Shown here piece after piece: positions 224 to 42,440 of a stretch of DNA of 58,976 nt. Position 1 is the stretch's first letter. Each line of letters starts with the position of its first letter. A model generated the notes under the pieces. The model did not search any database. It was not told where the DNA came from and saw only the letters and a list, made by a program, of their open reading frames with translations. Source of the DNA: Patescibacteria group bacterium (GTDB taxonomy: Bacteria; Patescibacteriota; Microgenomatia; UBA8517); the NCBI GenBank assembly GCA_038061225.1, contig JBBTZT010000003.1:1-58976 (forward strand). The letters are read 5' to 3'. The position numbers and the translations under genes were made by a program.

Positions 224-1511
224 ATGCTTTTTTCCAAATAAAAATAGATGACATTAATACTCCTATACCCATTATGAATAGACCTAGAGTAGCTGTCAAG
301 CTACCAGTCTCTGGTGTGGGCCCGCCTAGACTCGCGCTAGTCGAGGCTGGTGGTGCGGTTGCAGAAGATGTTGCAGTAGCTGATGGGCTACTAATAGGTG
401 TTGCAGAAGGTGTTGATTCAAAAGCTGGGCCTTCTGAGGCTGAAACTACAAAAGATCGAGTTACTGTTCGTAAAACGCCAGTTGTATCTCTCCATTTGAT
501 TGTCAATTTATGTTCCCCCGGTTCAAGATTATTTGGAGGACTCCAACTCCATTTTCCAGTGGATGTTGTCTTTAAAGTATCTGTTTGCATCTCCGATTCA
601 ACAACAATTTCTAACTCAGAATTTTTAGGAGCAGTTCCAAAAAATTCAGGATTAGTGGTGGTTATTATTTCACCTTCATCGATAGAATCAATTTTAATAT
701 TCTCTGTAGTTTGTGTTTCATTTGTTTTTGTAATTTCAAAACGCGATGAAATTTCAATTGATTCTGGTACAGTTAAATTGCTTTCAGGAAGTGAAGAATC
801 ATCGGTTTGTGGTAAAGACCTAAAATCATAGGTTCTACCAAGTATCATTGCGGGAATCGATCTGATCGTTTGTGGATAAATTACAGATTGAGAAGAACCC
901 AACAAACCTCCTTGTACTGAGATTTCAATAGCTGTGTTGTCCGTAATATTACTAATATATATCGATATTGGAATAACATAATTTCCTTCATCAGAGGTTA
1001 AAGTTGAAAGAACTGACCCATTTATTGTTAGATAAACTAAAGCTTTTGCAGGAGTTGATGCATCGGATTTTAAGATTGTTCCTGATGCAATTAAACTGGT
1101 TCCTGATGAATTTTTTGCAGAAAGTGTTTTTGTTTGCCAAGGAATTCCTTCATTATCATAATCATTTCCGTTGGAGTTAATTTTAAATAAAACACTAGAA
1201 TTAGAATCAGCCCCCATGATATTTACTGAATGAACAAAGCTTTTATCAGTTCCCTCTTCTAGCGCAACTTTACTTAATGAGAATTCTCCCTTACCCCATT
1301 TAATAAAGCCATTACTTTCAATATCAGTTGTCCAAGTAACAGTAAAACTTGAATCTGTAATATTTGCGAGCCTAACATTTTTAGGTAAAGCATCTATATT
1401 TGCACTAAGTTTAAATATTTGTTTTGAGTTGATAAGAAAAACTCCCGTAATAACACCAACAAGTAATATTAGTACTCCTAAAATTGTTGGTAATTTTGCA
1501 ATTTTTTTCAT
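216..1511 (-). CDS. Surface protein: N-terminal hydrophobic helix, FN3/PAP-N-like and Ig-like domains, S/T/A/P linker, C-terminal LPxTG-like sorting signal (TPETG-TM-KK)
   Basis: NVRLANITDSSFTVTWTTD resembles FN3. NPEFFGTAPKNSELEI...GKWSWSP...GEHKL resembles a bacterial Ig fold. The protein ends PTPETG, hydrophobic stretch, WKKAYA. Confidence 0.7.
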   Translation of the reverse strand: MKKIAKLPTILGVLILLVGVITGVFLINSKQIFKLSANIDALPKNVRLANITDSSFTVTWTTDIESNGFIKWGKGEFSLSKVALEEGTDKSFVHSVNIMGADSNSSVLFKINSNGNDYDNEGIPWQTKTLSAKNSSGTSLIASGTILKSDASTPAKALVYLTINGSVLSTLTSDEGNYVIPISIYISNITDNTAIEISVQGGLLGSSQSVIYPQTIRSIPAMILGRTYDFRSLPQTDDSSLPESNLTVPESIEISSRFEITKTNETQTTENIKIDSIDEGEIITTTNPEFFGTAPKNSELEIVVESEMQTDTLKTTSTGKWSWSPPNNLEPGEHKLTIKWRDTTGVLRTVTRSFVVSASEGPAFESTPSATPISSPSATATSSATAPPASTSASLGGPTPETGSLTATLGLFIMGIGVLMSSIFIWKKAYA

Positions 1512-1702
1512 AGTTTATTTTTCATTAATTCTATTGTTTCAACATCTAATTTGGGGGTAAGTGGTTTAGTAATTTCATCAGAAACTGTAACGGGCACCCC
1601 TAATGTATATGATCTATATATTGTAAACAAAATCCAAATTGCAACTGTTAATACAGTTAATATCATTAGAATAATTAAACTTGGTAACTTATTTTTCTTC
1701 AT
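1508..1702 (-). CDS. Small single-TM protein in the pilN-pilO operon
   Basis: MKKNKLPSLIILMILTVLTVAIWILF... The start at 1702 is preferred over 1717. Overlaps both neighbours. Confidence 0.65.
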   Translation of the reverse strand: MKKNKLPSLIILMILTVLTVAIWILFTIYRSYTLGVPVTVSDEITKPLTPKLDVETIELMKNKL

Positions 1703-2318
1703 ATTCATATGGTACATTGCCTGAGATTGTTAAAACAATAAACTTCTCATTGTCTGCAGTAATATTTGAATTAAAAACAAAAGAGTCAATTCTAAATGGT
1801 CTTCTTAAGTTTTCAATAGTTTGCAAAAACAAAAATAGATTTTGGTAATTACCAGTTACAGAAAAACTAACAGGTAATTCATTTTCAACCTTTTTGTCTG
1901 AGCTACCTTTTAAAAATATATTTGCAGATGAAAAGTTTCGTATTACGACAGAGCTATCAAAAGCTATTTTTTCAATCTGTTTTACTAGTTGTTCAACATT
2001 AGCACCCGTCGGAATTGCACTATCAATGAGTTCTAAATTTTGTGACTCTTTTTGTAATATATTACTTGCAATTTTTAAGTTACTAATTTTTTGAGTTAGT
2101 AGTGAAACTGTGTTTTCTTTACTTTTTATTTCATTATTTAACTCTACTATGGTTAGAATTGTTGGTTTAATTGCATAAATTGAAAAAATAATAATTGTTC
2201 CCAAAGACAAGATGAGTTCAAGGTAAGCTTTTAAGTTTGGTTTTGAATTATATATAGCCAATATATCCAAGAAAAAACCTTTGTATCTTAAATAATCTTT
2301 TCTCCATCCCTGTGCCAT
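1689..2318 (-). CDS. pilO: Type IV pilus assembly protein PilO-like
   Basis: TM helix, coiled coil, then ferredoxin-like C-domain (LPVSFSVTGNYQNLFLFLQTIENLRRPFRIDS). Lies directly downstream of pilN. Confidence 0.75.
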   Translation of the reverse strand: MAQGWRKDYLRYKGFFLDILAIYNSKPNLKAYLELILSLGTIIIFSIYAIKPTILTIVELNNEIKSKENTVSLLTQKISNLKIASNILQKESQNLELIDSAIPTGANVEQLVKQIEKIAFDSSVVIRNFSSANIFLKGSSDKKVENELPVSFSVTGNYQNLFLFLQTIENLRRPFRIDSFVFNSNITADNEKFIVLTISGNVPYEYEEK

Positions 2319-2342
2319 ATTTAGATTTATACAAGCTTTCGC

Positions 2343-2906
2343 TTATTTTTCTCCTTTCTTTGTATTATTAACTTTTGCAGAGATTGTAAAGGTTGTTACA
2401 GAACTATTTTCAATACTTGATGCAACTTGTGATAAATTTACGTCAGTAATTTCTTTTAAATCACTAAGGTTAATAAGGAATTGAGCAATTGATCTCTCTG
2501 AATAAGAAAGAGCTTTTATTTGAATTCCACTTTCACCCTCTTGTATTGAAGATAAAATTAAATCAAAAGGCATTAAATCAGAAATTTTTTTGACTAACTC
2601 ACTTCTTTTGCTTTCAGAATAAAAATTTTTAGCAACACTTAATTTCTTTTGATACATTCTAAATTCTTTTTCTACCTCTGCATAAGCTAAAACCTGAACT
2701 TTGTTCATATTAATTTCTTCATTCAAATCAGAATTTCTTGAATCTAGCCAAAATCTTGATAAAAATGCAGACATGACAACAAGCTCTGTAATGATAACCA
2801 TGATTCTAAAAGAAGATAAAGCCCATTTTAATATTCTTCCCAGAGTAGTATTTTGCAAATTATCACTAGGAAGTAAATTTATATGTTTTGGTTTGTTGGT
2901 GGGCAT
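2343..2906 (-). CDS. pilN: Type IV pilus assembly protein PilN-like
   Basis: N-terminal INLLP motif, TM, coiled coil, and C-terminal IQIKALSYSERSIAQFLINL...FTISA. Confidence 0.75.
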   Translation of the reverse strand: MPTNKPKHINLLPSDNLQNTTLGRILKWALSSFRIMVIITELVVMSAFLSRFWLDSRNSDLNEEINMNKVQVLAYAEVEKEFRMYQKKLSVAKNFYSESKRSELVKKISDLMPFDLILSSIQEGESGIQIKALSYSERSIAQFLINLSDLKEITDVNLSQVASSIENSSVTTFTISAKVNNTKKGEK

Positions 2907-2921
2907 ACACCCAATGTAGCA

Positions 2922-3173
2922 TTATTTGGAGACTTTTGAAAGACTATACAGCTTAGAAAGCTGAGATTTAATTCTACTAGCCTTATTCTTATGAATTGTC
3001 TTTTCTTTTGAAGCTCTATCAACCAAGGAAATAGCCTTTTCAATGTTTTTCTTAATCTTGGTTTTTTTAGCACTCTTAATTGATATTTCCAATTTAGACA
3101 TCCTTATTTTATTGAGAGATTCTTTTCTTTTAGAACTTCTTAAAGCTCTTTTGGCCGTTTTAGTTACTGGCAT
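2922..3173 (-). CDS. rpsT: 30S ribosomal protein bS20
   Basis: MPVTKTAKRALRSS...IHKNKASRIKSQL. Confidence 0.95.
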   Translation of the reverse strand: MPVTKTAKRALRSSKRKESLNKIRMSKLEISIKSAKKTKIKKNIEKAISLVDRASKEKTIHKNKASRIKSQLSKLYSLSKVSK

Positions 3174-3179
3174 GAGGGT

Positions 3180-3187
3180 AGTATAAT
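3180..3187. promoter_or_regulatory. Overlapping divergent -10 boxes for rpsT and murJ
   Basis: AGTATAAT reads TATAAT on + (8 nt before the murJ ATG) and TATACT on - (6 nt before the rpsT ATG). The intergenic gap is 22 bp. Confidence 0.6.
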
Positions 3188-3195
3188 CAAAAAAA

Positions 3196-4902
3196 ATGAA
3201 ATTAACAACAGTAACTAAATTAAAATTAATTTTTGCAAAATTAAAATCACTTATTTCTGACCAACAACACTCAGTTTTAAAAGCCGCGACTTTAATAATG
3301 ATAATGATTATTATCTCAAGATTATTAGGTTTAGTTCGTCAAAGAGTACTCGCCCATTATTTTGCACCAAGCGATTTAAGTCTTTTTTTTGCAGCCTTTA
3401 GATTGCCTGATACTATTTTTGAAGTACTGGTTTTTGGAACTTTTGCATCTGCTTTTATACCCATATTTACAAAAACTCTAAAAGATTCAAAAACAAAAGC
3501 TTGGGAAGTTGCAGGAATTGTAGCTAATTGGGGAGGTGTTATATTTTTAATACTAGCGGCTGTAGTAGTTATTTTTGCTCACCCGCTTTATAGAATAATA
3601 ACTCCAGGTTTTAATATTGCTGATCAAACAAGAATTGTGGATTTGGCTCGTATTTTATTTATTGCTCAAGGTTTTTTTGTAATTTCCTATGTTTTAACTG
3701 CAGTTTTAGAATCTTCAAAAAGATTTTTTATACCAGCTCTAGCACCACTTTTTTACAATCTTGGTATTATTGTTTCTACAATTCTTTTTTATAGTAAATT
3801 TGGACTTTTTGCTCCCGTTATTGGAGTTGTCGTTGGATCAGCTTGCCATTTGCTGACGCAACTGCCCTTGGCAGTAAAATTAGGTTTTAAATTCAGTAGA
3901 AGTTTTAAAATAACAGCAGAAGTCAAAAAAATTGCAAAACTTTCAGCACCTAGGATTCTTGAAGTATCTTTTCTACAAATTGCAAAATTTGTAGAGCTAA
4001 CTTTAGCTTCACTTATTTCAGTTCCTGCTTATACTTATTTTACTTTTGGGAATTCTGTCCAACTTATTCCGGTTGGTTTGTTTGGGACATCAATTGCAAA
4101 AGCGGCTTTTCCAACTTTATCAATGCAATCTGACAATTTAGAAGCTTTTAAAAAGACTTTATTTGAAACATTAAATCAAATAGTTTTTTTAATGGCTCCA
4201 ATTGTTGCCTTTTTAACAATTGCTAGAATTCCTGTAGTTAGACTTATTTTTGGAACAGATATATTTACATGGGATGCAACAATTGAAACTTCTTTTGTTG
4301 TTTCAGCATTTGCTGTTGGTATTTTTTCCCAAGCAGCAAATTCAATTTTAGCAAGAAGTTTTTACGCACTTCATGATACAAAAACACCAGTTTTAATATC
4401 AATTTCAACTCTTTTTGTAAATATTATTTTAGATTATTTACTTGTTATCGTTTATAAATTGCCTGTTTGGAGTTTGGCAGCAGCATTTTCTTTTGCATCT
4501 ATTGTTCAAATGATAATTCTTTTTACACTTGTCACCAAACGAATTCACAATGGAGTAAAAACTGGATTATATCTTCCTATTCTGAAATCTTTGACAGGAG
4601 GAGTTGTTTCTGGAGTAGTTATGTTTTTCATTTTAAAATTTTTCGATAAATCAGTTTGGATCAAAAAACTTTCATTCATCAGTAATCTTGATTTACCTTT
4701 TGAAAAATTTGTTCTTGATACTAGATATACAGGAAATTTATTAATTTTAACTGCAATTGTTGGTATAATTGGAGTAACAGTTTATCTAATAATTCTTAAA
4801 CTCTTGAAATCTAAAGAATTAGATACTTTTGTAAACTTAGTCAAACGAATGCTAGTCGGCCAAAAGTTTTCTACTGCCTCAGTAAACGAAGAAATTGTAT
4901 AA
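3196..4902 (+). CDS. murJ: Lipid II flippase MurJ (MviN)
   Basis: SRLLGLVR...AAFRLPD...F, multiple TM helices, LARSFYALHDTKTP. Confidence 0.95.
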   Translation: MKLTTVTKLKLIFAKLKSLISDQQHSVLKAATLIMIMIIISRLLGLVRQRVLAHYFAPSDLSLFFAAFRLPDTIFEVLVFGTFASAFIPIFTKTLKDSKTKAWEVAGIVANWGGVIFLILAAVVVIFAHPLYRIITPGFNIADQTRIVDLARILFIAQGFFVISYVLTAVLESSKRFFIPALAPLFYNLGIIVSTILFYSKFGLFAPVIGVVVGSACHLLTQLPLAVKLGFKFSRSFKITAEVKKIAKLSAPRILEVSFLQIAKFVELTLASLISVPAYTYFTFGNSVQLIPVGLFGTSIAKAAFPTLSMQSDNLEAFKKTLFETLNQIVFLMAPIVAFLTIARIPVVRLIFGTDIFTWDATIETSFVVSAFAVGIFSQAANSILARSFYALHDTKTPVLISISTLFVNIILDYLLVIVYKLPVWSLAAAFSFASIVQMIILFTLVTKRIHNGVKTGLYLPILKSLTGGVVSGVVMFFILKFFDKSVWIKKLSFISNLDLPFEKFVLDTRYTGNLLILTAIVGIIGVTVYLIILKLLKSKELDTFVNLVKRMLVGQKFSTASVNEEIV

Positions 4903-4915
4903 ATAAAAGACATCC

Positions 4916-4944
4916 TTGACAGTCAACTGATCAAATTGTACAAT
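4916..4944 (+). promoter_or_regulatory. Sigma70 promoter of the TA operon with palindromic operator candidates
   Basis: TTGACA(4916)-17 bp-TACAAT(4939). Palindromes TTGAC-A-GTCAA (4916-4926) and ATTGTACAAT (4935-4944) overlie the -35 and -10. Confidence 0.8.
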
Positions 4945-4954
4945 CTGACTAGTT

Positions 4955-5227
4955 ATGTTAAAGAACTTAAAAACAATATCTGCATATGAAGCTAGGAAGA
5001 ACTTTGGTGAACTAATGAATCTCGCTTACTATAATAATTATGAAATTATTGTGGAAAAAATGGGAAAACCTATGATTAAAATTGTTAAAATGGTTGCCGC
5101 GATAAGCACTACGCCTTCTAGGTCTGAAATAATGTCTAAATATTCGGGTATTTGGAGTACAAATGATGCAAATGAAATTGGAAAATCAACAAAGTCATTC
5201 AGAAAAAATTTTAAACTAGTAAAATAG
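4955..5227 (+). CDS. Phd/YefM-family antitoxin
   Basis: TISAYEARKNFGELMNLAYYNNYEIIVEKMGKP matches the Phd/YefM DNA-binding N-terminus. Sits upstream of a PIN toxin. Confidence 0.85.
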   Translation: MLKNLKTISAYEARKNFGELMNLAYYNNYEIIVEKMGKPMIKIVKMVAAISTTPSRSEIMSKYSGIWSTNDANEIGKSTKSFRKNFKLVK

Positions 5228-5238
5228 AAAACAAAAAA

Positions 5239-5646
5239 ATGGGATTGCTTCTAGATAGTGATGTTATTATTGACCATTTAAATAGTAAAAGTGATTATTT
5301 ATCTTCAATTATTAGTATTTCAAAAGAAGATTTGTTTATGAGTATTATTAATTGGTCAGAGATTATATACGGTATTAGGAAATCAAAAGATCCAATTAAG
5401 TCAAATAAACAATTTAATGGTTTTATTTTTGATCTAAATATAAAGATATTAGATCTTAATTTGAAAATTGCAAATAAATTTATTGATTTAAAAATTGATT
5501 TAGAAAAAAAGGGATCAAAACTTGAAGACTTTGATTTAATTATCGGGGCAACTTCAATATTAAATGATTTGACTTTAGTTACTGGAAATATTAAACATTT
5601 TTCTAGATTTCCAGAAATACAAATTTATCCAAAAAAAACCTCTTGA
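5239..5646 (+). CDS. vapC: VapC-like PIN-domain toxin
   Basis: LLDSDVIID, E, D..IGAT, VTGNIKHF acidic PIN motifs. Confidence 0.9.
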   Translation: MGLLLDSDVIIDHLNSKSDYLSSIISISKEDLFMSIINWSEIIYGIRKSKDPIKSNKQFNGFIFDLNIKILDLNLKIANKFIDLKIDLEKKGSKLEDFDLIIGATSILNDLTLVTGNIKHFSRFPEIQIYPKKTS

Positions 5647-5679
5647 CAATTGTTGGCACTCAGGGTATATTACTGCTAA
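5643..5679 (+). promoter_or_regulatory. Sigma70 promoter with an overlapping CIRCE operator
   Basis: TTGACA(5643)-17-TATATT(5666). TTGGCACTC-N9-TACTGCTAA at 5653-5679 versus CIRCE consensus TTAGCACTC-N9-GAGTGCTAA (3 mismatches), directly upstream of hrcA. Confidence 0.8.
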
Positions 5680-5700
5680 TACCAATTGGTTCGCATTAAT

Positions 5701-6426
5701 ATGAACGCATTAACATCAAGACAAACACAAATTTTAAAAGCATTGATAGATGAGTATATTGATACCGCAGAGCCGGTTGGTTCTGGTTCATTAGAAAAAA
5801 AATATAACTTAGGAGTATCCCCCGCAACAATTCGTAATGAAATGAATCTTTTGACCAAATCAGGATTTTTAAAACAGCCCCATACATCAGCAGGTAGAAT
5901 TCCAACATCAGGAGCTATGAAATTCTATGTTGATCAATTAATGGAAGAGAAACAAATGAGTTTAGCCGATGAAGTAAAGGCAAAAGAAGAAGTTTGGGAT
6001 GATAGGGGTAATTTTGATAAATTTATAAATGAAATAACACATTCTTTGGCAGAAAGAACTGGAGCTATGGCGATTGCTGCCATGCAAGATGGTTTTGTTT
6101 GGCAAGCTGGGCATGGAAATATATTTAGTTACCCTGAATTTGAAAATACTGCAGCTTGTGCCTCACTATTTGATTTTATAGACGAAGATGAACAATTAAT
6201 TGATTTATTTTTCAACCGATTTCCAGTTGAAACCCCATTTGATGTTTTATTTACTGAAGACATGGGATTTCGCAATATGCCAGTGGGTATAGTAGCTGCA
6301 CATTTTAAAGTTAAAGATAGAAACGGTGCGATCGGAGTATTTGGACCAGTAAGACAAACTTATTCAAACATCGTTCCAATGATAAGATATTATAGAGGAA
6401 TGCTTGAAGAAATAATGGGAATATGA
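5701..6426 (+). CDS. hrcA: Heat-inducible transcription repressor HrcA
   Basis: LTSRQTQIL..LIDEYI.TAEPVGS...SPATIRNEM..L...G.L.QPHTSAGRIPT. The ATG at 5701 is preferred to the TTG at 5686. Confidence 0.95.
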   Translation: MNALTSRQTQILKALIDEYIDTAEPVGSGSLEKKYNLGVSPATIRNEMNLLTKSGFLKQPHTSAGRIPTSGAMKFYVDQLMEEKQMSLADEVKAKEEVWDDRGNFDKFINEITHSLAERTGAMAIAAMQDGFVWQAGHGNIFSYPEFENTAACASLFDFIDEDEQLIDLFFNRFPVETPFDVLFTEDMGFRNMPVGIVAAHFKVKDRNGAIGVFGPVRQTYSNIVPMIRYYRGMLEEIMGI

Positions 6427-6890
6427 TTACAAAAAGTAAAAAAATAAAGAATGAAGAATTAAATGATATGAAAAATCAATTAGCTCGTGCTTTAGCAGAT
6501 TATGCAAATTTAAAGAAAAGATCCGAAGAAGAAAGAGTAGAAATGTATAAACTAGCAAGTATTTCTTTTATGATTAAAATATTACCTATTATTGACAATC
6601 TAAAACAAGCTCAAAGTCATGTTAATGATTCTGGTATTGCAATAATTGTTGGACAACTTGAAACACTTGCTAAAGAAGAAGGATTTGAAGAGATTAAAAC
6701 AAAAGTAGGAGAAAAGTTTAATGAATCAACTGACGAGGTGATAGAAGCACTTGAAACAAATAAAGAATTAGAAGATAATAATATTTCAGAAGTTGTTATG
6801 TCAGGCTGGAAATATTCTGATGGGACAATTGTCAGACACGCAAGAGTTAAAGTGTATAAGCGAAGCTTGCCACCTACGGTGGTAAATTAA
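6423..6890 (+). CDS. grpE: Nucleotide exchange factor GrpE
   Basis: RALADYANLKKR...GEKFNE...SGWKYSDGTIVRHARVKV; located in the hrcA-dnaK operon. Confidence 0.9.
   Translation: MITKSKKIKNEELNDMKNQLARALADYANLKKRSEEERVEMYKLASISFMIKILPIIDNLKQAQSHVNDSGIAIIVGQLETLAKEEGFEEIKTKVGEKFNESTDEVIEALETNKELEDNNISEVVMSGWKYSDGTIVRHARVKVYKRSLPPTVVN
6856..6882 (+). repeat. Mini-hairpin element ATAAGCGAAGCTTG-CCACC-TAC-GGTGG
   Basis: The first 18 nt match the reverse complement of 30888-30905 exactly. Related cores at 17664, 46735, 48920, 48944 and 55671. Confidence 0.8.
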
Positions 6891-6896
6891 AATAAT

Positions 6897-8810
6897 ATGT
6901 CTAAAATAATTGGAATTGATTTAGGAACAACAAATAGCTGTGTAGCTGTAATGGAAGGTGGAACACCTAAAGTTATCGCCACTTCTGATACTGGTAAAAA
7001 TACAACACCATCAGTTGTTGAACTTGGCAAAAATCTAGTAGGAGATGTTGCAAAACGCCAGATGATTCTAAATCCTACAAACACAATCTCATCAGTTAAA
7101 AGATTAATGGGGAGAAGATTTGAGGACAAAGAAGTAACGAGGACTCAGAAAATGGTTTCTTATAAAATTGTTTCAGGTAAAAGTGGGATGGCTGATGTTG
7201 AAATTGATGGCAAGACTTATACTCCACAAGAAATAAGTGCCAGAGTTTTAATGAAACTTAAAAAAGATGCAGAAAAATATCTTGGAGAAACTGTAGACCG
7301 CGCAGTTATTACAGTTCCTGCGTATTTTGATGATTCTCAACGACAAGCAACAAAACAGGCGGGTGAAATCGCAGGACTTAAAGTAGAAAGAATTATTAAT
7401 GAACCAACCGCAGCTGCTTTAGCATATGGATTGGATAAAAAGAAAAATGAAAAAATAGCAGTCTATGATCTTGGCGGTGGAACTTTTGATATTTCAATTC
7501 TAGAACTTGGAGATGGAGTGTTTGAGGTAAAGTCTACAAATGGTGATACACACCTAGGTGGAGATGATTTTGATGAAAAGATAGTAGATTTTATTGCAGA
7601 GGAATTCAAAAAAGAAAATTCAATGGATCTAAGGCTTGATAAACAAGCCTTACAACGTGTCAGAGATGCTGCGGAAAAAGCAAAAATTGAGCTTACTGCT
7701 ACTGAGGAAGTTGAAATAAATCAACCTTATATCACACAAAAAGATGGTCAACCGCTTCACTTGACAATGAAATTAACAAGAGCAAAGTTAGAATCAATTG
7801 TTGATGATTTAATTGTCAAAACAATTAAACCAGTTGAAGATTGTCTAAAAGATGCAAAACTTAAAACATCTGATATTAATGAAGTTATTTTAGTTGGTGG
7901 AATGACAAGAATGCCAAAGGTTGTTGAAGAAGTTAAAAAATTCTTTGGCAAAGAACCTAATAAATCAGTAAATCCTGATGAAGTTGTGGCAATTGGAGCT
8001 GCTATTCAAGCAGGAGTTTTAGCAGGAGACGTTAAAGATATTCTTCTTTTAGATGTTACTCCGCTAACACTTGCCATTGAAACAATGGGAGGCGTTGCAA
8101 CACCAATGATTCCAAGAAACACTACAGTTCCAACATCAAAAACTGAGGTTTTCTCAACTGCGGCAGATAATCAGACACAAGTTGAAATTCACATAACACA
8201 AGGTGAAAGACCACTTAGTAATGACAATAAAGCGCTAGGAAGATTTGTATTAGATGGTATTCCACCAGCTCCAAGAGGAGTTCCACAAATTGAAGTTATG
8301 TTTGATCTTGATGCGAATGGAATTTTAACAGTTACTGCAAAAGACAAAGCAACAGGAAAAACACAAAATATTAAAATTACAGGTTCTGTGGGATTAACAG
8401 ATGAAGAAGTTAAAAAAGCTCAAGAAGATGCAGAAAAGAATAAAGTAGAAGATGAAAAGAAAGCAGAAACTATAAAAGCCAAAAATACTGCAGATGCAAC
8501 AATTGTGATGGCTGAGAAAGCTATTAAAGATGCTGGAGACAAAGCACCAAAAGAAGTAGTAGAAAAAGTACAAGATAAAATTAAGGCATTAAAAGATATT
8601 TTAGAAACTGGATCAAAAGAAGATTTAGAAAGCAAGACAAAAGAACTTTCAGATACTTTGTCTGAAGTTGGTCAAGCAATGTATGCAAACCAAACACCTC
8701 CACAAGGTGAAGGACAACCAGCAACAGAAGAATCAAAAGAAGATGAATCTAAGAAATCAGACAAAAAAGGTGATTCTAAGATCGAAGAAGGTGAAGTGGT
8801 AAGCGAATAG
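6897..8810 (+). CDS. dnaK: Chaperone DnaK
   Basis: [31 protein letters not shown]. Confidence 0.99.
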
Positions 8811-8845
8811 CTTGCCATGATAAACATGGTAGAATAACTTCTGTA

Positions 8846-9742
8846 ATGACCACAAAAAATGATTTTTATGATATCTTAGGATTAAATAAATCTGCTTCTA
8901 GTGCAGAAATAAAAGCAGCATATAGAAAAAAAGCTTTGGAGTGGCATCCAGATAGACATCAAGGAAGTGACAAAGAAGAAGCTGAAAGAAAATTTAAAGA
9001 AATAAACGAAGCATATCAAATACTTTCTGATCCTTCAAAAAAGAGTGCATATGATAATTATGGCCACGACGCATTTTCTCCTGGTGGCGGAGGGTTTAAG
9101 GGTGGTGGATCCCCCTTCGCACAAGGCTTCGGGGGACAGGCCGGGCCATTTACTTACACTTGGTCTTCAGGTGGTGGGCAACAAAATCCATTTGGAAATA
9201 CTGATTTTGGAGATCCATTTGATATTTTTGAAAGTTTTTTTGGCGGAGGCGGAAATCCCTTTGGAAATCAAAGACAAAGACAAATTCCACGCTATAGCGT
9301 TCACTTAGAATTTATGGAAGCAGTAAATGGTGTTACTAAGGAATTTAATATAGAAGGGGAGAGAAGAAAAATTAAAATTCCAGCAGGTGTTGATGAAGGA
9401 ACAAAAATAAACTTTGGTGATTTTTCATTGTCTGTAAATGTTATTCCTCATGAATTTTTTGAAAGAGATGGGGATGATATTTATATAAATGTCACAATTC
9501 CCTATTCAATGGCAGTTTTAGGAGGAAACATTGAAGTTCCAACAATTGATGATGAAGTTAAAATAAAAGTAAAGGGGGGAACAGGGTCAGGAACAATGAT
9601 TAGACTAAAGGGCAAAGGTGCTCCAAACCCACATCATAAAACAAAAGGTGATCAGTATATAAAACTAAATATTTTAGTTCCAGAAAGAATGAACAGAGAA
9701 CAAAAAAGAATAATTGACGATTTGAAAGAAGAAGGGCTCTAA
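8846..9742 (+). CDS. dnaJ: DnaJ-family co-chaperone lacking the Zn-finger region (class B/CbpA-like)
   Basis: J domain with HPD, G/F-rich linker, C-terminal domain; no CxxCxGxG repeats. Confidence 0.9.
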   Translation: MTTKNDFYDILGLNKSASSAEIKAAYRKKALEWHPDRHQGSDKEEAERKFKEINEAYQILSDPSKKSAYDNYGHDAFSPGGGGFKGGGSPFAQGFGGQAGPFTYTWSSGGGQQNPFGNTDFGDPFDIFESFFGGGGNPFGNQRQRQIPRYSVHLEFMEAVNGVTKEFNIEGERRKIKIPAGVDEGTKINFGDFSLSVNVIPHEFFERDGDDIYINVTIPYSMAVLGGNIEVPTIDDEVKIKVKGGTGSGTMIRLKGKGAPNPHHKTKGDQYIKLNILVPERMNREQKRIIDDLKEEGL

Positions 9743-9786
9743 TTTTCAATTGATTAAATCTCCCTGATGCTGTAAACTTCAAGACT

Positions 9787-10776
9787 ATGGCAAGTAATAA
9801 TCAACCAAGAACTGAATTTAATCAAGCACTAAAGGCTATAGCTTCTGAACGAGGCATAGATGTTAATGTCATAATTGATGCAATCAAACAGGCAATAATT
9901 GCAGCCTTTAGACGTGATCAAAAAGAATCAGGTGTTGAATATTCTGAAGAAACTGTCTTTGATGCCCAAATTGACTCTTTAGATGGTGGAGCAAAAGTTT
10001 TAGTTGATGGCAAAGATGTAACACCTCCAGGGTTTGGAAGAATTGCGGCTCAAACGGCAAAACAAGTAATTCATCAAAAAATAAGAGAAGCAGAAAGAGG
10101 AATTGTTATGGAAGAATTTACAGGTAAGATCGGTTCATTAGTTTCTGGGACTGTCCTTCGATTTGATGGCCCAAATGTTAGAATAGATATGGGTAAGACT
10201 GAGGGATTTATGCCTCAAGACGAAAGAGTTCCTTCTGAAAGACTTGCTCAAGGTCAAAGACTAACATTTTTATTAAAAGATATTAGAGAAACTATTAAAG
10301 ACAAAGAAATAATTCTCTCTCGTGCTGATTCTCAATTTGTAGTTAAACTGTTTGCAAGAGAAGTTCCTGAAATTGGTGCAAACTCTGTAGAAATTAAATT
10401 AATTTCTCGTGAAGCTGGCGTTAGAACTAAAATTGCGGTTTACACTTCACAAAGTGGAGTTGATCCAGTAGGAAGTTGTGTTGGGCAAAAAGGTGTCAGG
10501 GTACAAGCAGTAACAAATGAGTTGGGTGGAGAAAGAGTTGATGTTATTCCTTATAACGAGGATCCCTCTGAACTCATAAAATTTGCCCTTGCTCCAGCAG
10601 AAAATTTAGTAGTAAAAGTTTCTAAAAAGACACTTGAAGCAACTGTTACTGCCCCTGAGGATCAATTATCTTTAGCAATTGGAAAAGATGGGCAAAATGT
10701 TCGTTTAGCCTCAAAATTAACAGGCTATAAAATCGAAATAATTGCGTCAAGCGAGTCAAATCAAAATGATAAATAA
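9787..10776 (+). CDS. nusA: Transcription factor NusA
   Basis: FGRIAAQTAKQVI, S1 and KH domains, GSCVGQKGVRVQAV, AIGKDGQNVRLA. Confidence 0.97.
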   Translation: MASNNQPRTEFNQALKAIASERGIDVNVIIDAIKQAIIAAFRRDQKESGVEYSEETVFDAQIDSLDGGAKVLVDGKDVTPPGFGRIAAQTAKQVIHQKIREAERGIVMEEFTGKIGSLVSGTVLRFDGPNVRIDMGKTEGFMPQDERVPSERLAQGQRLTFLLKDIRETIKDKEIILSRADSQFVVKLFAREVPEIGANSVEIKLISREAGVRTKIAVYTSQSGVDPVGSCVGQKGVRVQAVTNELGGERVDVIPYNEDPSELIKFALAPAENLVVKVSKKTLEATVTAPEDQLSLAIGKDGQNVRLASKLTGYKIEIIASSESNQNDK

Positions 10777-10823
10777 ATTTGTCATTAAAATGATAATGTT
10801 TAAATTTTTAAAAAATAATATAT

Positions 10824-12206
10824 ATGAATACCAAAAGATCGCCAATTGTAGTAGTTTTAGGTCATGTTGATCATGGTAAGACTTCTCTTCTTGATGCTTT
10901 AAGACAAACGAATGTTACTGCAACAGAGGTGGGCGGAATCACACAATCAATAGGAGCTTCGGTTATCACCTCAAAAGATGGAAATAAAATTACTTTTGTA
11001 GACACCCCAGGTCATGCTGCGTTTTCTGCCATGAGGTCTCGTGGTTCTCGCTTAGCTGATATTGCTCTTTTAGTTTTAGATTCTTCAGATGGAGTAAAAC
11101 CACAAACAAAAGAAGCAATAGAACACATAAATGATGCAAAAATTCCCTTTATAGTAGTTTTTACAAAAACTGATCTTCCAGCAGCCTCAATTGACGTAGC
11201 ATTAACTGAACTTGAAAAGAATGGAATTCTTTTTGAAGGTAGAGGTGGTCAAACTCCATACTTAGGTGTATCTGCAAAGAAAAAAGAAGGATTAAATGAA
11301 CTTTTAGATTTAATCAGTTTGCTTTCTGACGTTAATTCTATAGAAGGTGATAATGAAGCAGATTTGGAAGCAGTTGTAATTGAAACAGCAAGAGAAAAAG
11401 GTGGAAACATGGTATCTGTAGTTGTTAGAAATGGAAAATTATTTGTAGGACAAGAAATTTTTGCAGAAGGTGCAAAAGGAAAAGTTAAAGGATTATTTGA
11501 TGATAAAAACAAACCAGTTAAAGAAGTTCTCTCAGGAAAACCAGCAAGAATATTAGGTTTTAAAAACTTACCGCCAGTTGGAGCTGTAATATCTGACCAT
11601 TTTAGTGGCCAGGAATTTAAAATTTCTAATTTAAAATTTAAAATTGAGAAAGGGAAGATTCCACTTTATTTAAAAGCAGAAAGTGCGGGAGCTTTAGAGG
11701 CTCTTGTCGCATCAATTCCACAAGAATTCGCTGTTATTGATGCAACAATAGGGGATGTTATTGAATCTGATATTTTAAATGCGAAATCTAATAATGCAAT
11801 AATTTTTGTTTTTGAGAGTAAAGTTTCTTCAAATATTAAAAAACTGGCAGAAATGGAAAAAATAAAAATCGAAAGGTTTGAAATAATATATGAACTTTTA
11901 GAACGCTTAAATGAAATTGTTAAAAAGGGTTTGACAGAAATTATCGGGAAAGCTGAAATAATTGCAAGTTTTCCATTTGATAATAAAAAGGTTGCAGGGT
12001 CTAAAATACTGCAAGGTAGGATTGAAAAATTAGGAGATATTAGGCTAATAAGAGATGAAAAAGAACTAGGAAAACTCAAAATTTTATCAATCAAGAAACA
12101 AAAACAGGAAGTTCTTGGAGCTTCTCAAGGCGAAGAGTGTGGAATATTATTTGTTCCACAACTTGATTTTCAGGTAGGAGATGTTATAGTAGCGGTTAAA
12201 GAATGA
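10824..12206 (+). CDS. infB: Translation initiation factor IF-2, N-terminally truncated
   Basis: [38 protein letters not shown]; G4 motif reads TKTD. Confidence 0.95.
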   Translation: MNTKRSPIVVVLGHVDHGKTSLLDALRQTNVTATEVGGITQSIGASVITSKDGNKITFVDTPGHAAFSAMRSRGSRLADIALLVLDSSDGVKPQTKEAIEHINDAKIPFIVVFTKTDLPAASIDVALTELEKNGILFEGRGGQTPYLGVSAKKKEGLNELLDLISLLSDVNSIEGDNEADLEAVVIETAREKGGNMVSVVVRNGKLFVGQEIFAEGAKGKVKGLFDDKNKPVKEVLSGKPARILGFKNLPPVGAVISDHFSGQEFKISNLKFKIEKGKIPLYLKAESAGALEALVASIPQEFAVIDATIGDVIESDILNAKSNNAIIFVFESKVSSNIKKLAEMEKIKIERFEIIYELLERLNEIVKKGLTEIIGKAEIIASFPFDNKKVAGSKILQGRIEKLGDIRLIRDEKELGKLKILSIKKQKQEVLGASQGEECGILFVPQLDFQVGDVIVAVKE

Positions 12207-13105
12207 TTAACAATAGTTTTGCTTCACTTATATCCTCTGCTAACGAAATTTTAATTCTATTGCCAAATAAACCATATTTTGATCAAGTTGGGGCTGGACT
12301 TTCTCTTTATTTATCACTCCTAAGTCTAGCTAAAAAAGTTTCTATTTTTTGCCCCGTTTCAATGATTGCAGAATATTCTAGGCTTATTGGAGTTGATAAA
12401 ATAACAACTGATTTAGAAAGTCATAATTTAACCATTAAATTTGTAAATTATGAAGCAGCTGATGTTGATAAAGTAAATTATGACATTATTGATGGACAAT
12501 TTAAATTAACAGTAACTCCAAAACTAGGTCTTAAATCTCCCACTAAAGATCAAGTTGATATTAGTTATTCTGGTATATCTTGTGATTTAGCTATTTTAAT
12601 TGGTGGTGCAAATGATTCACATTTTCCTGCTATTTCAAAAGATGAATTTAAAAATACTAAATTAGTTCATATTGGGACAAGACTTCTAGAAATTATAAAT
12701 AATGAATTAGAAGTACTTTCTTTTGCAAGACCAGCATCCTCAGCATCAGAACTTGTAGCAAGTTTACTAAAAGAAAGTGGGTATCCAGTAGATTCTGATA
12801 TTGCAACAAATCTTTTAATAGGAATTGAAGAACAAAGTAAAAATTTTCAAGGTGAGGCAGTTACCGCTGATACATTTATTATATTTGCAGAGCTTTTAAA
12901 ATTAGGAGGTAAAAGAATGCCACGAGCGTTAGCTCCAAAAGATTATCCACAGGGATCAATTCCAACCAAGCCCTTTACATCAGCCTTCGCCAAGGCTTCG
13001 TCCAGCAAGCAAATGACCCCAGAGGAAGCAGAAGAAGAATTAAACCAAGAAATACCGCCTAGTTGGTCAGAACCAAAAATCTTCACAGGAACTAGTTTAA
13101 GTTAA
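12203..13105 (+). CDS. Degenerate DHH/NrnA-like protein
   Basis: SANEILILLP..P..DQVGAGLSL and ASSASELV...ATNLLIGI..S.NF resemble the DHH-family fold and it follows infB, but the DHH motif is absent. Confidence 0.55.
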   Translation: MINNSFASLISSANEILILLPNKPYFDQVGAGLSLYLSLLSLAKKVSIFCPVSMIAEYSRLIGVDKITTDLESHNLTIKFVNYEAADVDKVNYDIIDGQFKLTVTPKLGLKSPTKDQVDISYSGISCDLAILIGGANDSHFPAISKDEFKNTKLVHIGTRLLEIINNELEVLSFARPASSASELVASLLKESGYPVDSDIATNLLIGIEEQSKNFQGEAVTADTFIIFAELLKLGGKRMPRALAPKDYPQGSIPTKPFTSAFAKASSSKQMTPEEAEEELNQEIPPSWSEPKIFTGTSLS

Positions 13106-13120
13106 TGATATAATATATCC

Positions 13121-30645: not shown

Positions 30646-30649
30646 CCAA

Positions 30650-31060: not shown

Positions 31061-31250
31061 AAATGTAATAGCACCAATTCAAGCTTGGCTTATGTCACAG
31101 GGTAAATGTGTTGGTTGTGGCACACCTCTAGACACGGCTAAAAAGAAAGAACATAAGTATGGAGAAATGGTAACTTGTAAATGTGGCAGAATTTATATCA
31201 GAAATTCAAAAACAAAAAGCTACAGAAGAGCACTTCTAAATGAAATCTAA
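31053..31250 (+). CDS. Small Zn-ribbon protein
   Basis: CVGC...CKCGRIY; overlaps both neighbours. Confidence 0.75.
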   Translation: MFKNVIAPIQAWLMSQGKCVGCGTPLDTAKKKEHKYGEMVTCKCGRIYIRNSKTKSYRRALLNEI

Positions 31251-32157
31251 ATTATTATTATTTTTAACTGTAACTATTCTTTTTTTTGTAATTTGTGGTT
31301 TTTATGTTAAAAATATGTTTTTGCCAGTATCAACTGATGCAAAATCTGTTGATTTTTTAATTCCTAAAGGTTCGTCTGTCTCTATTATTGCAAACAATTT
31401 AAAAAAAGCAGGACTTATTAAAAATGCAATCGTTTTTAAGATCTACATTCAAATTACAAGTTCACAAAACAAAATACAAGCAGGTGAGTTTCAGCTCGCC
31501 CCGAGCTTCACACTTTCTCAAATTGTTGACAAACTTAAAAAAGGTCCATCTGAAATTTGGGTAACTATTCCAGAAGGGCTTAGACGTGAGGAAATAGCTT
31601 TAAAATTTAAGACCACTCTAAACAAAAGTGATGAGTTTGTAGTCGAATTTATGAACTTAACCGTAAACAAAGAAGGCTATCTTTTCCCAGATACCTATCT
31701 TTTTCCTAAAGCAGCAACAGCAAGTCAAATAGTAAATAAACTTACAAATACATTTGATTCAAAAGTAGAAACAGTTACATACAAACAAGTTATTATGGCC
31801 TCAATGTTGGAACGAGAAACAATAAGTGACGATGAAAAACCAATAGTCGCAGGAATTTTATATAAAAGAATTAAAAATGACTGGCCACTACAAGTAGATG
31901 CAACAATACAATATGCAAAAGGAAATTGGGAACCAATTTATTCCATTGATAAAAATATTGTTTCTCCATTTAATACATATAAAAATTTAGGAATGCCACC
32001 AAGTCCTATTGCAAATGCAGGACTTTCTTCAATTGAAGCAGCAATTAATCCAGAAGAATCTGATTACTGGTATTATATTCATGATGACGATGGCAAAATT
32101 CACTTTGCAAGAACTTTGGAAGAACACAACGCAAACATTGCTAAATATTTAAGGTAA
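31240..32157 (+). CDS. mltG: Endolytic transglycosylase MltG
   Basis: TIPEG, EGYLFPDTY, ASMLERE, LQVDAT, SPFNTY..GMPPSPIAN. Confidence 0.95.
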   Translation: MKSKLLLFLTVTILFFVICGFYVKNMFLPVSTDAKSVDFLIPKGSSVSIIANNLKKAGLIKNAIVFKIYIQITSSQNKIQAGEFQLAPSFTLSQIVDKLKKGPSEIWVTIPEGLRREEIALKFKTTLNKSDEFVVEFMNLTVNKEGYLFPDTYLFPKAATASQIVNKLTNTFDSKVETVTYKQVIMASMLERETISDDEKPIVAGILYKRIKNDWPLQVDATIQYAKGNWEPIYSIDKNIVSPFNTYKNLGMPPSPIANAGLSSIEAAINPEESDYWYYIHDDDGKIHFARTLEEHNANIAKYLR

Positions 32158-32166
32158 TTTTAGTTG

Positions 32167-32194: not shown

Positions 32195-32242
32195 CGCTTC
32201 TAGGTCTACTTATGTAGGCTTCTTTCATATTACCTAATCTTA

Positions 32243-39347: not shown

Positions 39348-39351
39348 AATT

Positions 39352-40253: not shown

Positions 40254-40262
40254 TATAGGTAT

Positions 40263-42440
40263 ATGGCAGAGGAAAAAGCAAAAAAATCCGCAATGGTTAT
40301 GACGGCTACAAAAGACCGTAATGTTTCTTTGGATAAAATTAGAAACATTGGAATTATTGCTCACATTGATGCTGGTAAAACAACAACAACTGAAAGACTT
40401 TTATTTGAAACAGGTAGAACTTATAAACAAGGCTCTGTTGATGATGGAACAACAGTTACAGACTGGATGGCTCAAGAAAGAGAAAGAGGAATTACAATAG
40501 TTTCGGCCGCAATTACTGCCTTTTGGGATTTTAATCCGTCAGCTGGCGGATCTTCAGTAGAAAAAGGTCATTACAGAATAAATTTAATTGATACTCCAGG
40601 ACACATTGATTTTACGGCAGAAGTTGAGAGGAGTCTCAGGGTCCTCGATGGCGCTTTAATGGTTTTTGATGGAAGAACGGGGGTTGAAAGTCAATCTGAA
40701 ACTGTTTGGAGGCAGGCTGATAAATACAAAGTTCCAAGAATTTGTGTTTTAAATAAACTTAATTTAATTGGGGCTGATTTTGATGGTTCCATTAAATCAA
40801 TTAGAGAAAGGTTGGGGGCTAATGCTTCACCTGTAACTTATCCAATTGGTCAAGAACATGATCATCGTGGAGTTATTGATCTTATCAGGCTGAAAGCCTT
40901 AACTTATAAAGCAATTGAAGATCACCAACTAACAGAGGAAGAAATCCCAACTGATTTATTAGAAACTGCAAAGAAATATAGACAAGAATTAATTGAAAAA
41001 GTATCAGAATTTGATGATGATACATTAACAAAATATTTAGAAGGCGTTGAACCAACTGATGTTGAAATTAAAAGAGCAATTAGAAAAGGAGTTATTTCAG
41101 GAAAATTCTTTCCAATTTTTGGAGGAGACAACAGATCTGCAGAGTCACAATTATTACTTGATGGAGTTGTAGAATATTTACCCTCTCCTATTGATCTTAG
41201 TGCAATTGAAGGAACAAATACTAAAACTGGTGAGATAGAACACAGGGAAAGAAACAGCGAGGCGCCGTTCTCAGGAATTGCTTTTAAAGTTGTTACTGAC
41301 CCCCATGTTGGAAGACTTCTCTACGTTAGAGTTTATTCAGGAGTCTTAAAGACAGGACAAACTGTCTATAACGCCAATAAACAAACATCAGAAAGAATTG
41401 GAAAATTAGTTTTACTTCATGCTGACCAAAGAGAACTTATCGAAGAGGCCTATGCTGGAGAAATTGTTGCTGTTGTTGGTATGAAGGATACTACCACAGG
41501 ACACACTATTTGTGATCCTGCCCACCCAATCCACCTTGAATCAATTACTTTTCCAGAACCAGTTATTTCTCTTGCTATTGAACCTGCAACAAAAGCTGAT
41601 CAAGAAAAAATGGGTCTGGCTTTAAACAAACTTTCAGATGAAGACCCGACCTTTAAAATTAAAAGTAATCCTGAAACTGGACAGACAATTATTGCAGGAA
41701 TGGGTGAATTACAACTTGAGGTTTTAGTAGACAGAATGAAAAGGGAGTTTAACGTGGTTGCCACCACGGGTGCACCACAAGTTGCTTATAAGGAAACAAT
41801 TAAGAGAAATGGTGATGGAGAGGGTAAATATATAAGACAAACTGGTGGTCGTGGACAATATGGACATTGTTTGATTCGTGTTGAGCCAAGAGGTAGAGGC
41901 GAGGGATTTGAATTTAAGAGTGAAATTAAGGGTGGATCAATTCCATCTGAATATATCCCTGCAATTCAAAAAGGTATTGTTGAAAAATTAGAAAATGGAA
42001 TTATGGCAGGTTATCCAATGGTTGATATTAAAGCTATTGTCTATGATGGAAGTTATCATGATATAGATTCTTCAGAAATGTCATTTAAAATTGCAGGATC
42101 TTTAGCTGTTGAGGATGCAATTAGAAAAGCTGATATGTGCCTTCTTGAGCCAATCATGAAAGTTGAAGTATTTACTCCAGCAGAATATATGGGAGACGTC
42201 ATGGGAGACCTTTCCAGTAAAAGAGCACAAATTTCTGGAACTGAAGAAAAGGCTGGGGAAACTGTAGTTCTTGCAACGGCACCACTTGCAGAGCTTTCAG
42301 GTTATGCAACAAAATTAAGATCATTAACACAGGGAAGAGCAAGAGCATTCGTAGAACCATCTCATTATGAAGAAGTTCCAAGTCACATTGCCGCCCAAAT
42401 AGTTGCAAAGGCTGGAAAAGTCGAGATGACAAGAGGATAA
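40263..42440 (+). CDS. fusA: Elongation factor G
   Basis: RNIGIIAHIDAGKTTTTER, QERERGITI, DTPGHIDF; five-domain layout; str operon position. Confidence 0.98.
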   Translation: MAEEKAKKSAMVMTATKDRNVSLDKIRNIGIIAHIDAGKTTTTERLLFETGRTYKQGSVDDGTTVTDWMAQERERGITIVSAAITAFWDFNPSAGGSSVEKGHYRINLIDTPGHIDFTAEVERSLRVLDGALMVFDGRTGVESQSETVWRQADKYKVPRICVLNKLNLIGADFDGSIKSIRERLGANASPVTYPIGQEHDHRGVIDLIRLKALTYKAIEDHQLTEEEIPTDLLETAKKYRQELIEKVSEFDDDTLTKYLEGVEPTDVEIKRAIRKGVISGKFFPIFGGDNRSAESQLLLDGVVEYLPSPIDLSAIEGTNTKTGEIEHRERNSEAPFSGIAFKVVTDPHVGRLLYVRVYSGVLKTGQTVYNANKQTSERIGKLVLLHADQRELIEEAYAGEIVAVVGMKDTTTGHTICDPAHPIHLESITFPEPVISLAIEPATKADQEKMGLALNKLSDEDPTFKIKSNPETGQTIIAGMGELQLEVLVDRMKREFNVVATTGAPQVAYKETIKRNGDGEGKYIRQTGGRGQYGHCLIRVEPRGRGEGFEFKSEIKGGSIPSEYIPAIQKGIVEKLENGIMAGYPMVDIKAIVYDGSYHDIDSSEMSFKIAGSLAVEDAIRKADMCLLEPIMKVEVFTPAEYMGDVMGDLSSKRAQISGTEEKAGETVVLATAPLAELSGYATKLRSLTQGRARAFVEPSHYEEVPSHIAAQIVAKAGKVEMTRG

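Follow-up and report, generated by a model that had tools for sequence, protein, structure and literature searches.

Six short GC-rich stretches in housekeeping genes of a Patescibacteria genome as putative copies of five families of mobile mini-elements

What are the short stretches rich in guanine and cytosine (GC) that lie in frame in housekeeping genes of a small Patescibacteria genome? We addressed this question in the first 58,976 bases of contig C3 (JBBTZT010000003.1; this whole stretch is hereafter the window) of assembly GCA_038061225.1 (G000; 620,921 bp in 7 contigs of 32-36% GC, estimated completeness 92%), whose relatives have genomes of 0.5-1.3 Mb. An initial annotation of the window had listed six such stretches as one set of selfish palindromes inserted into flexible protein loops. 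All six were recovered, with 61-77% GC in a window of 33% GC, and all rank among the 18 strongest 24-nucleotide (nt) GC islands in a scan of the window. Sequence comparison supports reading them as copies of five families (A to E) of 17-30-nt mobile mini-elements, in frame in housekeeping genes:

321-350, minus strand: family D, 30 nt, GC 0.70, in a surface protein gene
9110-9136 (core 9114-9132), plus strand: family C, 27 nt, GC 0.67, in the gene for DnaJ
12984-13000, plus strand: variant of family C, 17 nt, GC 0.65, in the gene for an unnamed protein
17633-17662, plus strand: variant of family E, 30 nt, GC 0.77, in the gene for PNPase
21681-21701, plus strand: family A in its 21-nt form, 21 nt, GC 0.71, in the gene for RNase J
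40534-40551, plus strand: family B, 18 nt, GC 0.61, in the gene for EF-G

Five host genes have Pfam support, namely those for DnaJ, PNPase, RNase J, EF-G and the surface protein (Big_13); the sixth, open reading frame (ORF) 12203-13105, codes for a conserved protein described initially as DHH-like and has no Pfam match at E <= 1e-5. Orthologue alignments with 29-30 relatives per gene revealed that the encoded peptides are non-ancestral at five of the six sites, in agreement with the initial proposal that selfish elements add new protein sequence. Close comparisons come from the 93%-identical sister genome G002, the congener G004, and G006, whose surface protein is 88% identical. Judged against sister genomes, the RNase J, surface-protein and PNPase sites are clean insertions without duplication of the target, two sites exchange a few bases within a variable loop or linker (EF-G and the site at 12984), and the DnaJ copy overwrites an ancestral glycine/phenylalanine-rich (G/F) motif at unchanged length.

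Evidence for recent gain comes from the family-D copy. It reads CCAGCCTCGACTAGCGCGAGTCTAGGCGGG on the coding (minus) strand of ORF 216-1511 and codes for PASTSASLGG, in a serine/threonine/alanine/proline stalk right before the PTPETG sorting signal of a sortase-anchored surface protein. Relative to G006 it is an exact 30-nt gain (empty site GCTCCA/CCCACG, the slash marking the junction) with 12 of 15 dyad pairs. Furthermore, groundwater metagenome run X3, which also carries the RNase J insert, yields a contig of 6,612 nt that matches window positions 291-6932 at 99.8% identity and is without exactly 30 nt at 319, namely the family-D element. Because G006 shares the empty site with this X3 strain, the empty state is ancestral and the insertion very young. 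In other runs the assembly breaks up at the element into 31-33-nt unitigs that are 4-13 times deeper than the flanks and extend into at least four other sequence contexts absent from G000; this excess depth and these additional flanks indicate that family D is a multi-copy repeat of the community.

The surface protein and family D offered further observations. A second family-D copy of G000, with 1 mismatch, lies outside the window (C5:16965-16994) in a prepilin-like gene, where it follows the leader MEINKKKG and precedes LTLTELLIV, and is read in the other open frame as LPRLALVEAG; since it ends in Gly, it re-creates a prepilin-peptidase-type site (G/LTLTE) behind a leader lengthened by 10 residues. 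The surface-protein orthologue of G042 (L201) carries the family-A peptide LPAQAG in the stalk linker and that of its congener G040 (L202) is without it, so that this is an independent family-A arrival in the same linker. The G006 orthologue (G006:C16:3059-4351) contains one in-frame TAA.

The RNase J copy (ORF 21616-23280) is a 21-nt variant of CCTGCCTGC..GCAGGCAGG, set in the gene as GAATA-CCTGCCTAGCGGCAAGGCTGG-TCAAG and coding for LPSGKAG. The 21-mer coincides exactly with the dyad unit and differs at 3 positions from CCTGCCTGCCGGCAAGGCAGG at C2:5274. LPSGKAG occurs in 0 of 29 relatives, the empty site reads GAATA/TCAAG, and G002 together with 25 further relatives has an uninterrupted GAATATCAAG-type sequence. 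AlphaFold prediction (25 orthologues, mean pLDDT 81.5) places residues 23-29 in a beta-hairpin loop between strands 15-22 and 32-40, the kind of location initially expected for LPSGKAG, and the local alignment to Bacillus subtilis RNase J1 (3zq4) begins directly after the insert. The insertion was found with zero differences in contigs of four runs (at least three studies), in which congeners without it co-occur. The same loop holds an independent five-residue insertion of TPDKGPA type, belonging to none of families A-E, in G048, G039 and G043 (L070-L072), which represent another family of the order.

The PNPase copy GCCCACTCCGGTGGACCTTCGCGGGGCAGG (ORF 15542-17872) is a 30-nt variant of CCCACTCCGCTGAAGCTTCGCGGGGCAGG. 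It codes for AHSGGPSRGR, placed after the S1 domain where the Arg/Gly-rich C-terminal tail begins, and its limits fit better at 17633-17662 than at the 17635-17662 given initially, the site itself being real. In relatives KPKE leads directly to DRR with no such segment, while the Arg/Gly tail itself is ancestral; a metagenomic pnp orthologue (L288) carries the same 30-nt variant at AAAGAA/GATAGA.

At EF-G (ORF 40263-42440) the copy ATCCGTCAGCTGGCGGAT corresponds to the 18-nt palindrome ATCCGCCAGCTGGCGGAT with 1 mismatch and codes for NPSAGGS, which falls in the loop that precedes DTPGH, the G3 motif. The stretch from FW to RINxIDTPGH measures 13 residues in 24 of 30 genomes and 16 only in G000 and G002, which read NPSAGGS and NPPAGGS (3 residues more); at the DNA level AATCCGTCAGCTGGCGGA stands in place of AAGGAAGAT, 18 nt for 9. 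Solved EF-G structures show 6- and 13-residue gaps at the insert position. As the copy is common to G000 and G002, it is older than the split of these species, and it is not specially conserved: 3 of 18 positions differ between the two genomes, as against 4 of 45 in the flanks, a drift at about the flank rate.

The two family-C copies share CCTTCGC(A)CAAGGCTTCGG and, as the initial annotation had noted, are closely similar, matching at 17 of 18 positions with one indel. The copy in the unnamed protein, CCTTCGC-CAAGGCTTCG, is one base shorter than the family core and codes for AFAKAS in a C-terminal linker; owing to the indel, the two copies are read in different frames. This linker, between IPTKPFT and QMTPEEAEEE, is hypervariable, its length in relatives being anything from 0 residues to over 40. 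Neither of the sisters G002 and G006 has the segment, and the 30 nt (TCAGCCTTCGCCAAGGCTTCGTCCAGCAAG) of G000 compare with 15 (CAAACAATAAATAGA) in G002.

In dnaJ (ORF 8846-9742) the element lies as TCCCCC-TTCGCACAAGGCTTCG-GGGGGA between the J domain and DnaJ_C (Pfam), in the G/F linker, and codes for SPFAQGFGG. This peptide aligns with the ancestral NPFAGGGFGG (SPFAQGFGGQAGPF vs NPFAGGGFGGQNGPF) at zero length gain, with the codons shifted to GC. Here the proposal that the peptides are insertions fails in part, since the motif is ancestral and no length was gained; the DNA nevertheless matches element copies in unrelated genes, and one at another dnaJ position of a congener, at 19 of 19 positions. 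The core 19-mer CCTTCGCACAAGGCTTCGG is exact in six genomes (five besides G000), in unrelated genes, and with at most 2 mismatches it has 27 matches in 19 of 101 relatives, in three frames, versus 2 for the reversed control. The usual fuller form of the family, CCCTCCTTCGCACAAGGCTTCGGAAGGG, is read as PPSHKASEG, as SPFAQGFGG or, from the other strand, as PRSLVRRG; variants CCTTCGCCAAAGGCTTCGG occur in G026 and G027. G004 carries GGATCCTCCTTCGCACAAGGCTTCGGAGGACAA at another dnaJ position, with a gain of 4 residues, and its arms TCCTCC and GGAGGA differ from TCCCCC and GGGGGA of G000 by a compensatory change.

Clustering of palindromes across the genome, as suggested initially, did uncover exact recurrent strings. 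Our scan of G000 for perfect GC-rich hairpins found CCTGCCTGCGCAGGCAGG five times, with 20- and 21-nt relatives, and (A)TCCGCCAGCTGGCGGA(T) three times. Allowing mismatches, G000 holds about 21 copies over the five families, family B accounting for five, of which one is perfect. Each family consensus has 1-6 sites at 3-6 mismatches in the 621-kb genome, whereas ten shuffled versions of that consensus average 0-0.1. Instead of the single second set first envisaged there are thus five separate families; the RNase J and EF-G copies belong to families A and B, palindromes also recorded elsewhere in the genome.

The term palindrome applies to part of the material. Dyad symmetry is strong at 321, 21681 and 40534 (10-12 of 12-15 pairs, or 1 mismatch from a perfect palindrome), as the initial annotation had it, whereas the DnaJ/12984 family and the PNPase element have partial dyad symmetry only and are poor palindromes. 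Since families C and E combine little dyad symmetry with weak hairpins, palindromy is not the unifying property. Hairpin stability was likewise rejected as a common feature, the energies being mostly no better than those of shuffled sequences.

Beyond G000, the families are widespread and patchy. Family A occurs in 17 of 61 relatives with up to 22 copies per genome, and the 16-mer core of family B is exact in 26 of 101 relatives with up to 12 copies; the reversed control gave 0 in both cases. The identical family-D 30-mer is present in unrelated proteins of 12 other metagenome-assembled genome (MAG) records, whose titles name Paceibacterota, Saccharibacteria, Nomurabacteria, Gammaproteobacteria and Burkholderiales. 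The canonical family-E 29-mer is exact in 17 metagenome contigs, where its setting differs with base composition: contigs of 35-40% GC carry it within genes, read in frame as PHSAEASRGR, and those of 46-60% GC have it as intergenic arrays beside other hairpins. Our literature search did not find the element strings or peptides, and concept searches gave only work on Rickettsia palindromic elements (RPEs), repetitive extragenic palindromic sequences (REPs) and GC clusters; the elements therefore appear to be undescribed. What this window adds is the cross-phylum 29-30-nt families D and E, a family-C copy that overwrites an ancestral motif, a strain-level empty site, and copies in four core genes within 40 kb.

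Two family-A sequences in relatives deserve separate mention. In G038 (L216:1516-1549; C2:513815-513848) one 18-nt palindrome splits another precisely in the middle (TTGCCTGC-CCTGCCTGCGCAGGCAGG-GCAGGCAG), so that the ORF, of 611 residues, reads SLPA-LPAQAG-QAG; the same ORF has a further copy at a distance of 504 nt. Among one-mismatch variants the most frequent is CCTGCCTGCGCAGACAGG, which was found in at least eight genomes and would encode the sortase-like LPAQTG, a likeness that we judge a coincidence (or the mark of a sub-family) because the hosts are cytoplasmic proteins.

The reading frames of the copies argue for translation as Pro/Ser/Ala/Gly-type peptides of 6-10 added residues. All ten family-A copies in G000 read LPAxxG; among the 34 copies in relatives, which include a few orthologous pairs, 28 read LPAxxG, 4 CLRRQ and 2 PACAGR (binomial test, 6e-9). 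Similarly, 11 of 12 family-D copies are read as PASTSASLGG, and four of the six possible frames contain stops and are never used. This bias, together with the disuse of stop-containing frames, suggests that ribosomes read through the elements, and on the same grounds we rejected a translationally bypassed or spliced insert. Alignments, Pfam and structures place the copies outside domains or in length-variable loops.

At the DNA level the unit is gained with constant limits across unrelated contexts. No target duplication accompanies the empty sites GAATA/TCAAG, CCA/CCC and AAAGAA/GATA, or the comparison of G042 with G040. Family A shows a target bias, with a purine-rich 5' neighbour at 31 of 41 copies and a pyrimidine-rich 3' neighbour at 33 of 41, and no other conserved target. 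Composite elements were considered and rejected: neighbouring family-A pairs lie in ordinary ORFs and enclose nothing special.

Collectively, we hold it to be highly probable that five or more families of short, GC-rich, fixed-sequence and partly palindromic mobile mini-elements, circulating in Patescibacteria-type bacteria and some other uncultured lineages, gave rise to these sites. A copy is written into DNA as a precise unit, with neither target-site duplication nor a conserved target motif. In gene-dense genomes the surviving copies present an open frame and fall in loops, linkers, tails or leader peptides, and once inserted they drift at about the flank rate; insertion is ongoing at the strain level. 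The elements are presumably non-autonomous and moved in trans by an enzyme. The replacement sites (EF-G, DnaJ and 12984) may reflect the same process combined with microhomology or later deletion.

As a source of such an enzyme, the best current lead is a set of small stand-alone GIY-YIG cassettes at tRNA genes. Their ORFs (80-120 residues) number 1-18 per genome and often lie directly 5' of tRNA genes; G000 encodes two such small GIY-YIG proteins, at C2:73716-73910 and C3:85945-86169. At two G040 loci (L220, C7:30602-30840; L321, C6:44954-45201) a palindrome occupies a duplicated tRNA 5' fragment just upstream of the GIY-YIG ORF: a family-A copy 18 nt upstream of one, and a family-B copy 28 nt upstream of the other, where it replaces the D-arm. 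In G029 (L322, C27) a 27-nt family-C copy ends 5 nt before the GIY-YIG ATG, and at G000 C2:73716-73964 a double hairpin separates a tRNA end from the ATG. The GIY-YIG ORFs at these loci end 3-4 nt before an intact tRNA gene, and G029 has three such units in tandem between tRNA-Glu, tRNA-Lys and tRNA-Gln.

Membership in a system of REPs and RAYT-type (REP-associated tyrosine) transposases was rejected: the 16 RAYT-like loci inspected, among them G000 C3:228297-228965 and loci of the element-rich genomes G038, G040, G029 and G002, are each flanked by their own hairpin (for example ATCCCACATCGGGAGTGG and CCACCTCGAAGGTGG) and never by families A-E. PF01797 matches occur in 42 of 61 relatives, including 11 of 11 genomes with at least two family-A copies versus 31 of 50 others (Fisher test, 0.01). 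Matches are lacking in G049, which has family-B and family-C copies, and in G010, G027 and G028, with one family-A match each. The RAYT-like loci themselves look like a REPtron organisation in candidate phyla radiation (CPR) genomes, the 223-residue gene of G000 (C3:228297-228965) having the same hairpin ATCCCACATCGGGAGTGRATTACTATT on both sides and fifteen relatives' genes (within L246-L261) sharing the layout, each with its own hairpin. G004 has 33 PF01797 matches, about 30 of them near-identical genes for a 145-residue IS200-type transposase, a recent insertion-sequence expansion in a 0.9-Mb genome.

Several points weigh against mobile mini-elements and their proposed partner. Copy number per genome is low (1-22), and three of the six sites (EF-G, DnaJ and 12984) are more than simple insertions. 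Families C and E fold no better than shuffled sequences (z -0.1 to -1.2; +0.9 for the PNPase copy). Families C and D are absent from the viral contigs searched, and D and E from the plasmid collections searched; taxon labels of MAGs may include mis-binned contigs. The analysis turned up no enzyme, donor form or transposition intermediate. The association with GIY-YIG cassettes comprises four loci recognised after the fact, the scarcity of neutral spacers in compact genomes might by itself account for it, and an in-frame fusion of GIY-YIG to a host protein (L316) has no element arms.

The explanation that survives best beside mobile elements, one we nevertheless consider unlikely, is templated patch repair, in which break repair in loop DNA copies an ectopic element through microhomology at its ends, with no dedicated enzyme and with either a resident copy or community DNA taken up by the competence system as donor. 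At the three non-clean sites the element ends have one or a few bases in common with the target, so that microhomology or patch repair could have played a part: EF-G, DnaJ (in G000 and G004) and 12984 are replacements with shared end bases, such as AA..GAT at EF-G and CC-TT..TT-GG at dnaJ of G004, and family D is 4-13 times more abundant than G000 in community DNA. However, the three clean insertions have no microhomology between flanks and element ends, and the same unit limits recur in a dozen unrelated contexts, unlike random patch copying.

Quite improbable in our view is that each element is a footprint, namely the joined ends of a longer cassette since lost, for example a small GIY-YIG carrier. 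The position of families A, B and C at the 5' edge of GIY-YIG cassettes speaks for such an origin. Yet neither G000 nor about 320 loci contain a pair of half-elements around a gene, a search in which halves of 8-9 nt are too noisy to be decisive; nearby copy pairs lie in ordinary genes, the GIY-YIG fusion is without arms, and a cell with some 300 nt of cassette in EF-G or RNase J, even for a time, would probably not survive.

We give very little credence to a selected DNA signal (an uptake, protein-binding or restriction-related site) that arose by point mutation. The perfect palindromes of families A and B have 6-bp centres (TGCGCA and CAGCTG) of the dimer-binding kind, and their patchy occurrence among relatives would fit; the gain of whole units at empty sites does not, and shared copies are not kept above the flank rate. 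DNA uptake sequences and uptake signal sequences number hundreds to thousands per genome and arise by substitution, and identity with them was rejected in view of the 1-22 copies per genome and the whole-unit gains.

It is scarcely more credible, and if anything less so, that the GC islands are mutually unrelated, ancestral Gly/Ala/Pro/Arg-rich linker codons. Ancestral Gly-richness does indeed characterise both the G/F linker of DnaJ and the tail of PNPase, which somewhat exceed their own genes in GC in all relatives, and the remaining islands of the window are ordinary coding sequence (EF-Tu, rpoC, ribosomal proteins, and the island at 31480-31506, which codes for the AGEFQL stretch of ORF 31240-32157, presumably a conserved MltG motif). 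Composition fails on the exact identity of 18-30 nt with copies in unrelated genes and phyla, on the use of the rare codons CTG, GCG, CAG and CGG, on the segments missing in sister genomes and on the two family-C copies in different frames; orthologue alignments refute it at five sites, and at DnaJ the 19-mer has the excess over its control given above.

An assembly or sequencing artefact, suggested by the assemblies that break at family D, deserves practically no weight, because two to five studies provide independent assemblies that contain the RNase J, surface-protein, DnaJ, unnamed-protein and PNPase sites, the copies are in frame, and the EF-G copy was inherited and diverged between G000 and G002. 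The window sequence is present in groundwater and aquifer metagenomes of several studies, and independent metagenome assemblies show zero differences inside the DnaJ, unnamed-protein and PNPase elements.

Other parts of the genome and samples showed irregularities of their own. Contigs of run X8 link 10697 to 11074, omitting 376 nt (depth 59.5), and 6934 to 7674, omitting 739 nt inside dnaK (depth 11); these junctions may be structural variants or sequence of other organisms. Outside the window, C3:324,900-330,300 and C6:1,200-2,100 contain dense GC-rich islands and long inverted repeats, such as ACATCGGCTGACCCCACCCAGCCGATGT with its complement 1.2 kb away; the two regions may have a foreign or mobile origin, or may be artefacts of contig ends.

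Returning to mobile mini-elements, a more far-reaching synthesis is possible, which we put forward tentatively and do not regard as the probable outcome. An undescribed DNA-writing activity, shared or exchanged across Patescibacteria and some other phyla and active today, would bluntly insert fixed strings of 17-30 nt. Its partner might be the 80-100-residue GIY-YIG nucleases at tRNA genes, with the same strings at the 5' edge of their cassettes. In that case no smaller mobile unit would be known, and the strings would steadily supply essential proteins with new loop sequence. If mobility is real, DNA as small as 17-30 bases can still spread between phyla and enter such genes as those for EF-G, RNase J, DnaJ and PNPase in cells that survive the event, which would offer a mechanism for lineage-specific loop insertions in conserved CPR proteins. 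The elements would also serve as markers that tell strains apart, break assemblies and inflate local depth, and could mislead alignment-based phylogenies. Both the strain-level empty site and the GIY-YIG neighbourhood make the movement of enzyme-less palindromic clusters directly testable.

How do these elements compare with known systems? Miniature inverted-repeat transposable elements are 50-500 bp long, with terminal inverted repeats and target-site duplications; ours resemble them in being non-autonomous and in having little beyond inverted ends, and differ in their 17-30 nt and the lack of target duplication. In classical homing the nuclease gene itself moves into a fixed target. The GIY-YIG cassettes recall this type through the GC-rich elements and the duplicated tRNA 5' fragment in their upstream flank; here, in contrast, an 18-30-nt string enters many targets, rather than a nuclease gene one.

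REPs are imperfect palindromes of 20-40 nt, one end of which bears an unpaired GTAG or CGTC tag, and are associated with RAYTs, which are HUH tyrosine transposases (PMC3733652). Our families are likewise GC-rich, short, non-autonomous and sometimes intragenic, and the intergenic arrays of family E are REP-like. By inspection, however, families A-E carry no GTAG or CGTC tag, their ends being CCTGCC (A), (A)TCCGCC (B), CCCTCC or TCCCCC (C), CCAGCC or CCCGCC (D) and CCCCAC or CCTGCC (E); none flanks a RAYT-like gene in the 16 loci, and copies here lie mainly inside genes.

The GC clusters of yeast and fungal mitochondria are short, GC-rich and mostly palindromic elements of an AT-rich genome, with in-frame polymorphism in var1, many sub-families that merge and shuffle, and no known dedicated transposase (PMC8811140). 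The contrast of 61-77% GC elements with a window of 33% GC and the strain-level in-frame polymorphism of family D parallel this system. GC clusters are organellar and mostly intergenic, usually have AG or TAG terminal repeats interpreted as target duplication, and in Magnusiomyces are bypassed in translation (PMC8811140). Our four empty sites, in contrast, show no duplication, and the frame bias argues for translation rather than bypass.

The initial annotation had drawn its analogy with RPEs, which are about 100-150 bp long, form a long palindromic structure and are restricted to Rickettsia. RPEs are selfish, lie in frame in genes including housekeeping genes, and are translated and tolerated (PMC10969869). 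The analogy holds for behaviour, in that alignments and the AlphaFold loop of RNase J indicate in-frame insertion tolerated as an extra surface peptide, and not for membership, which length and host exclude. Going by their descriptions, the mini-elements are set apart from RPEs by a far smaller size of 17-30 nt, by several unrelated-looking families in a 0.62-Mb groundwater host of CPR type, and by strings that are identical across distant lineages.

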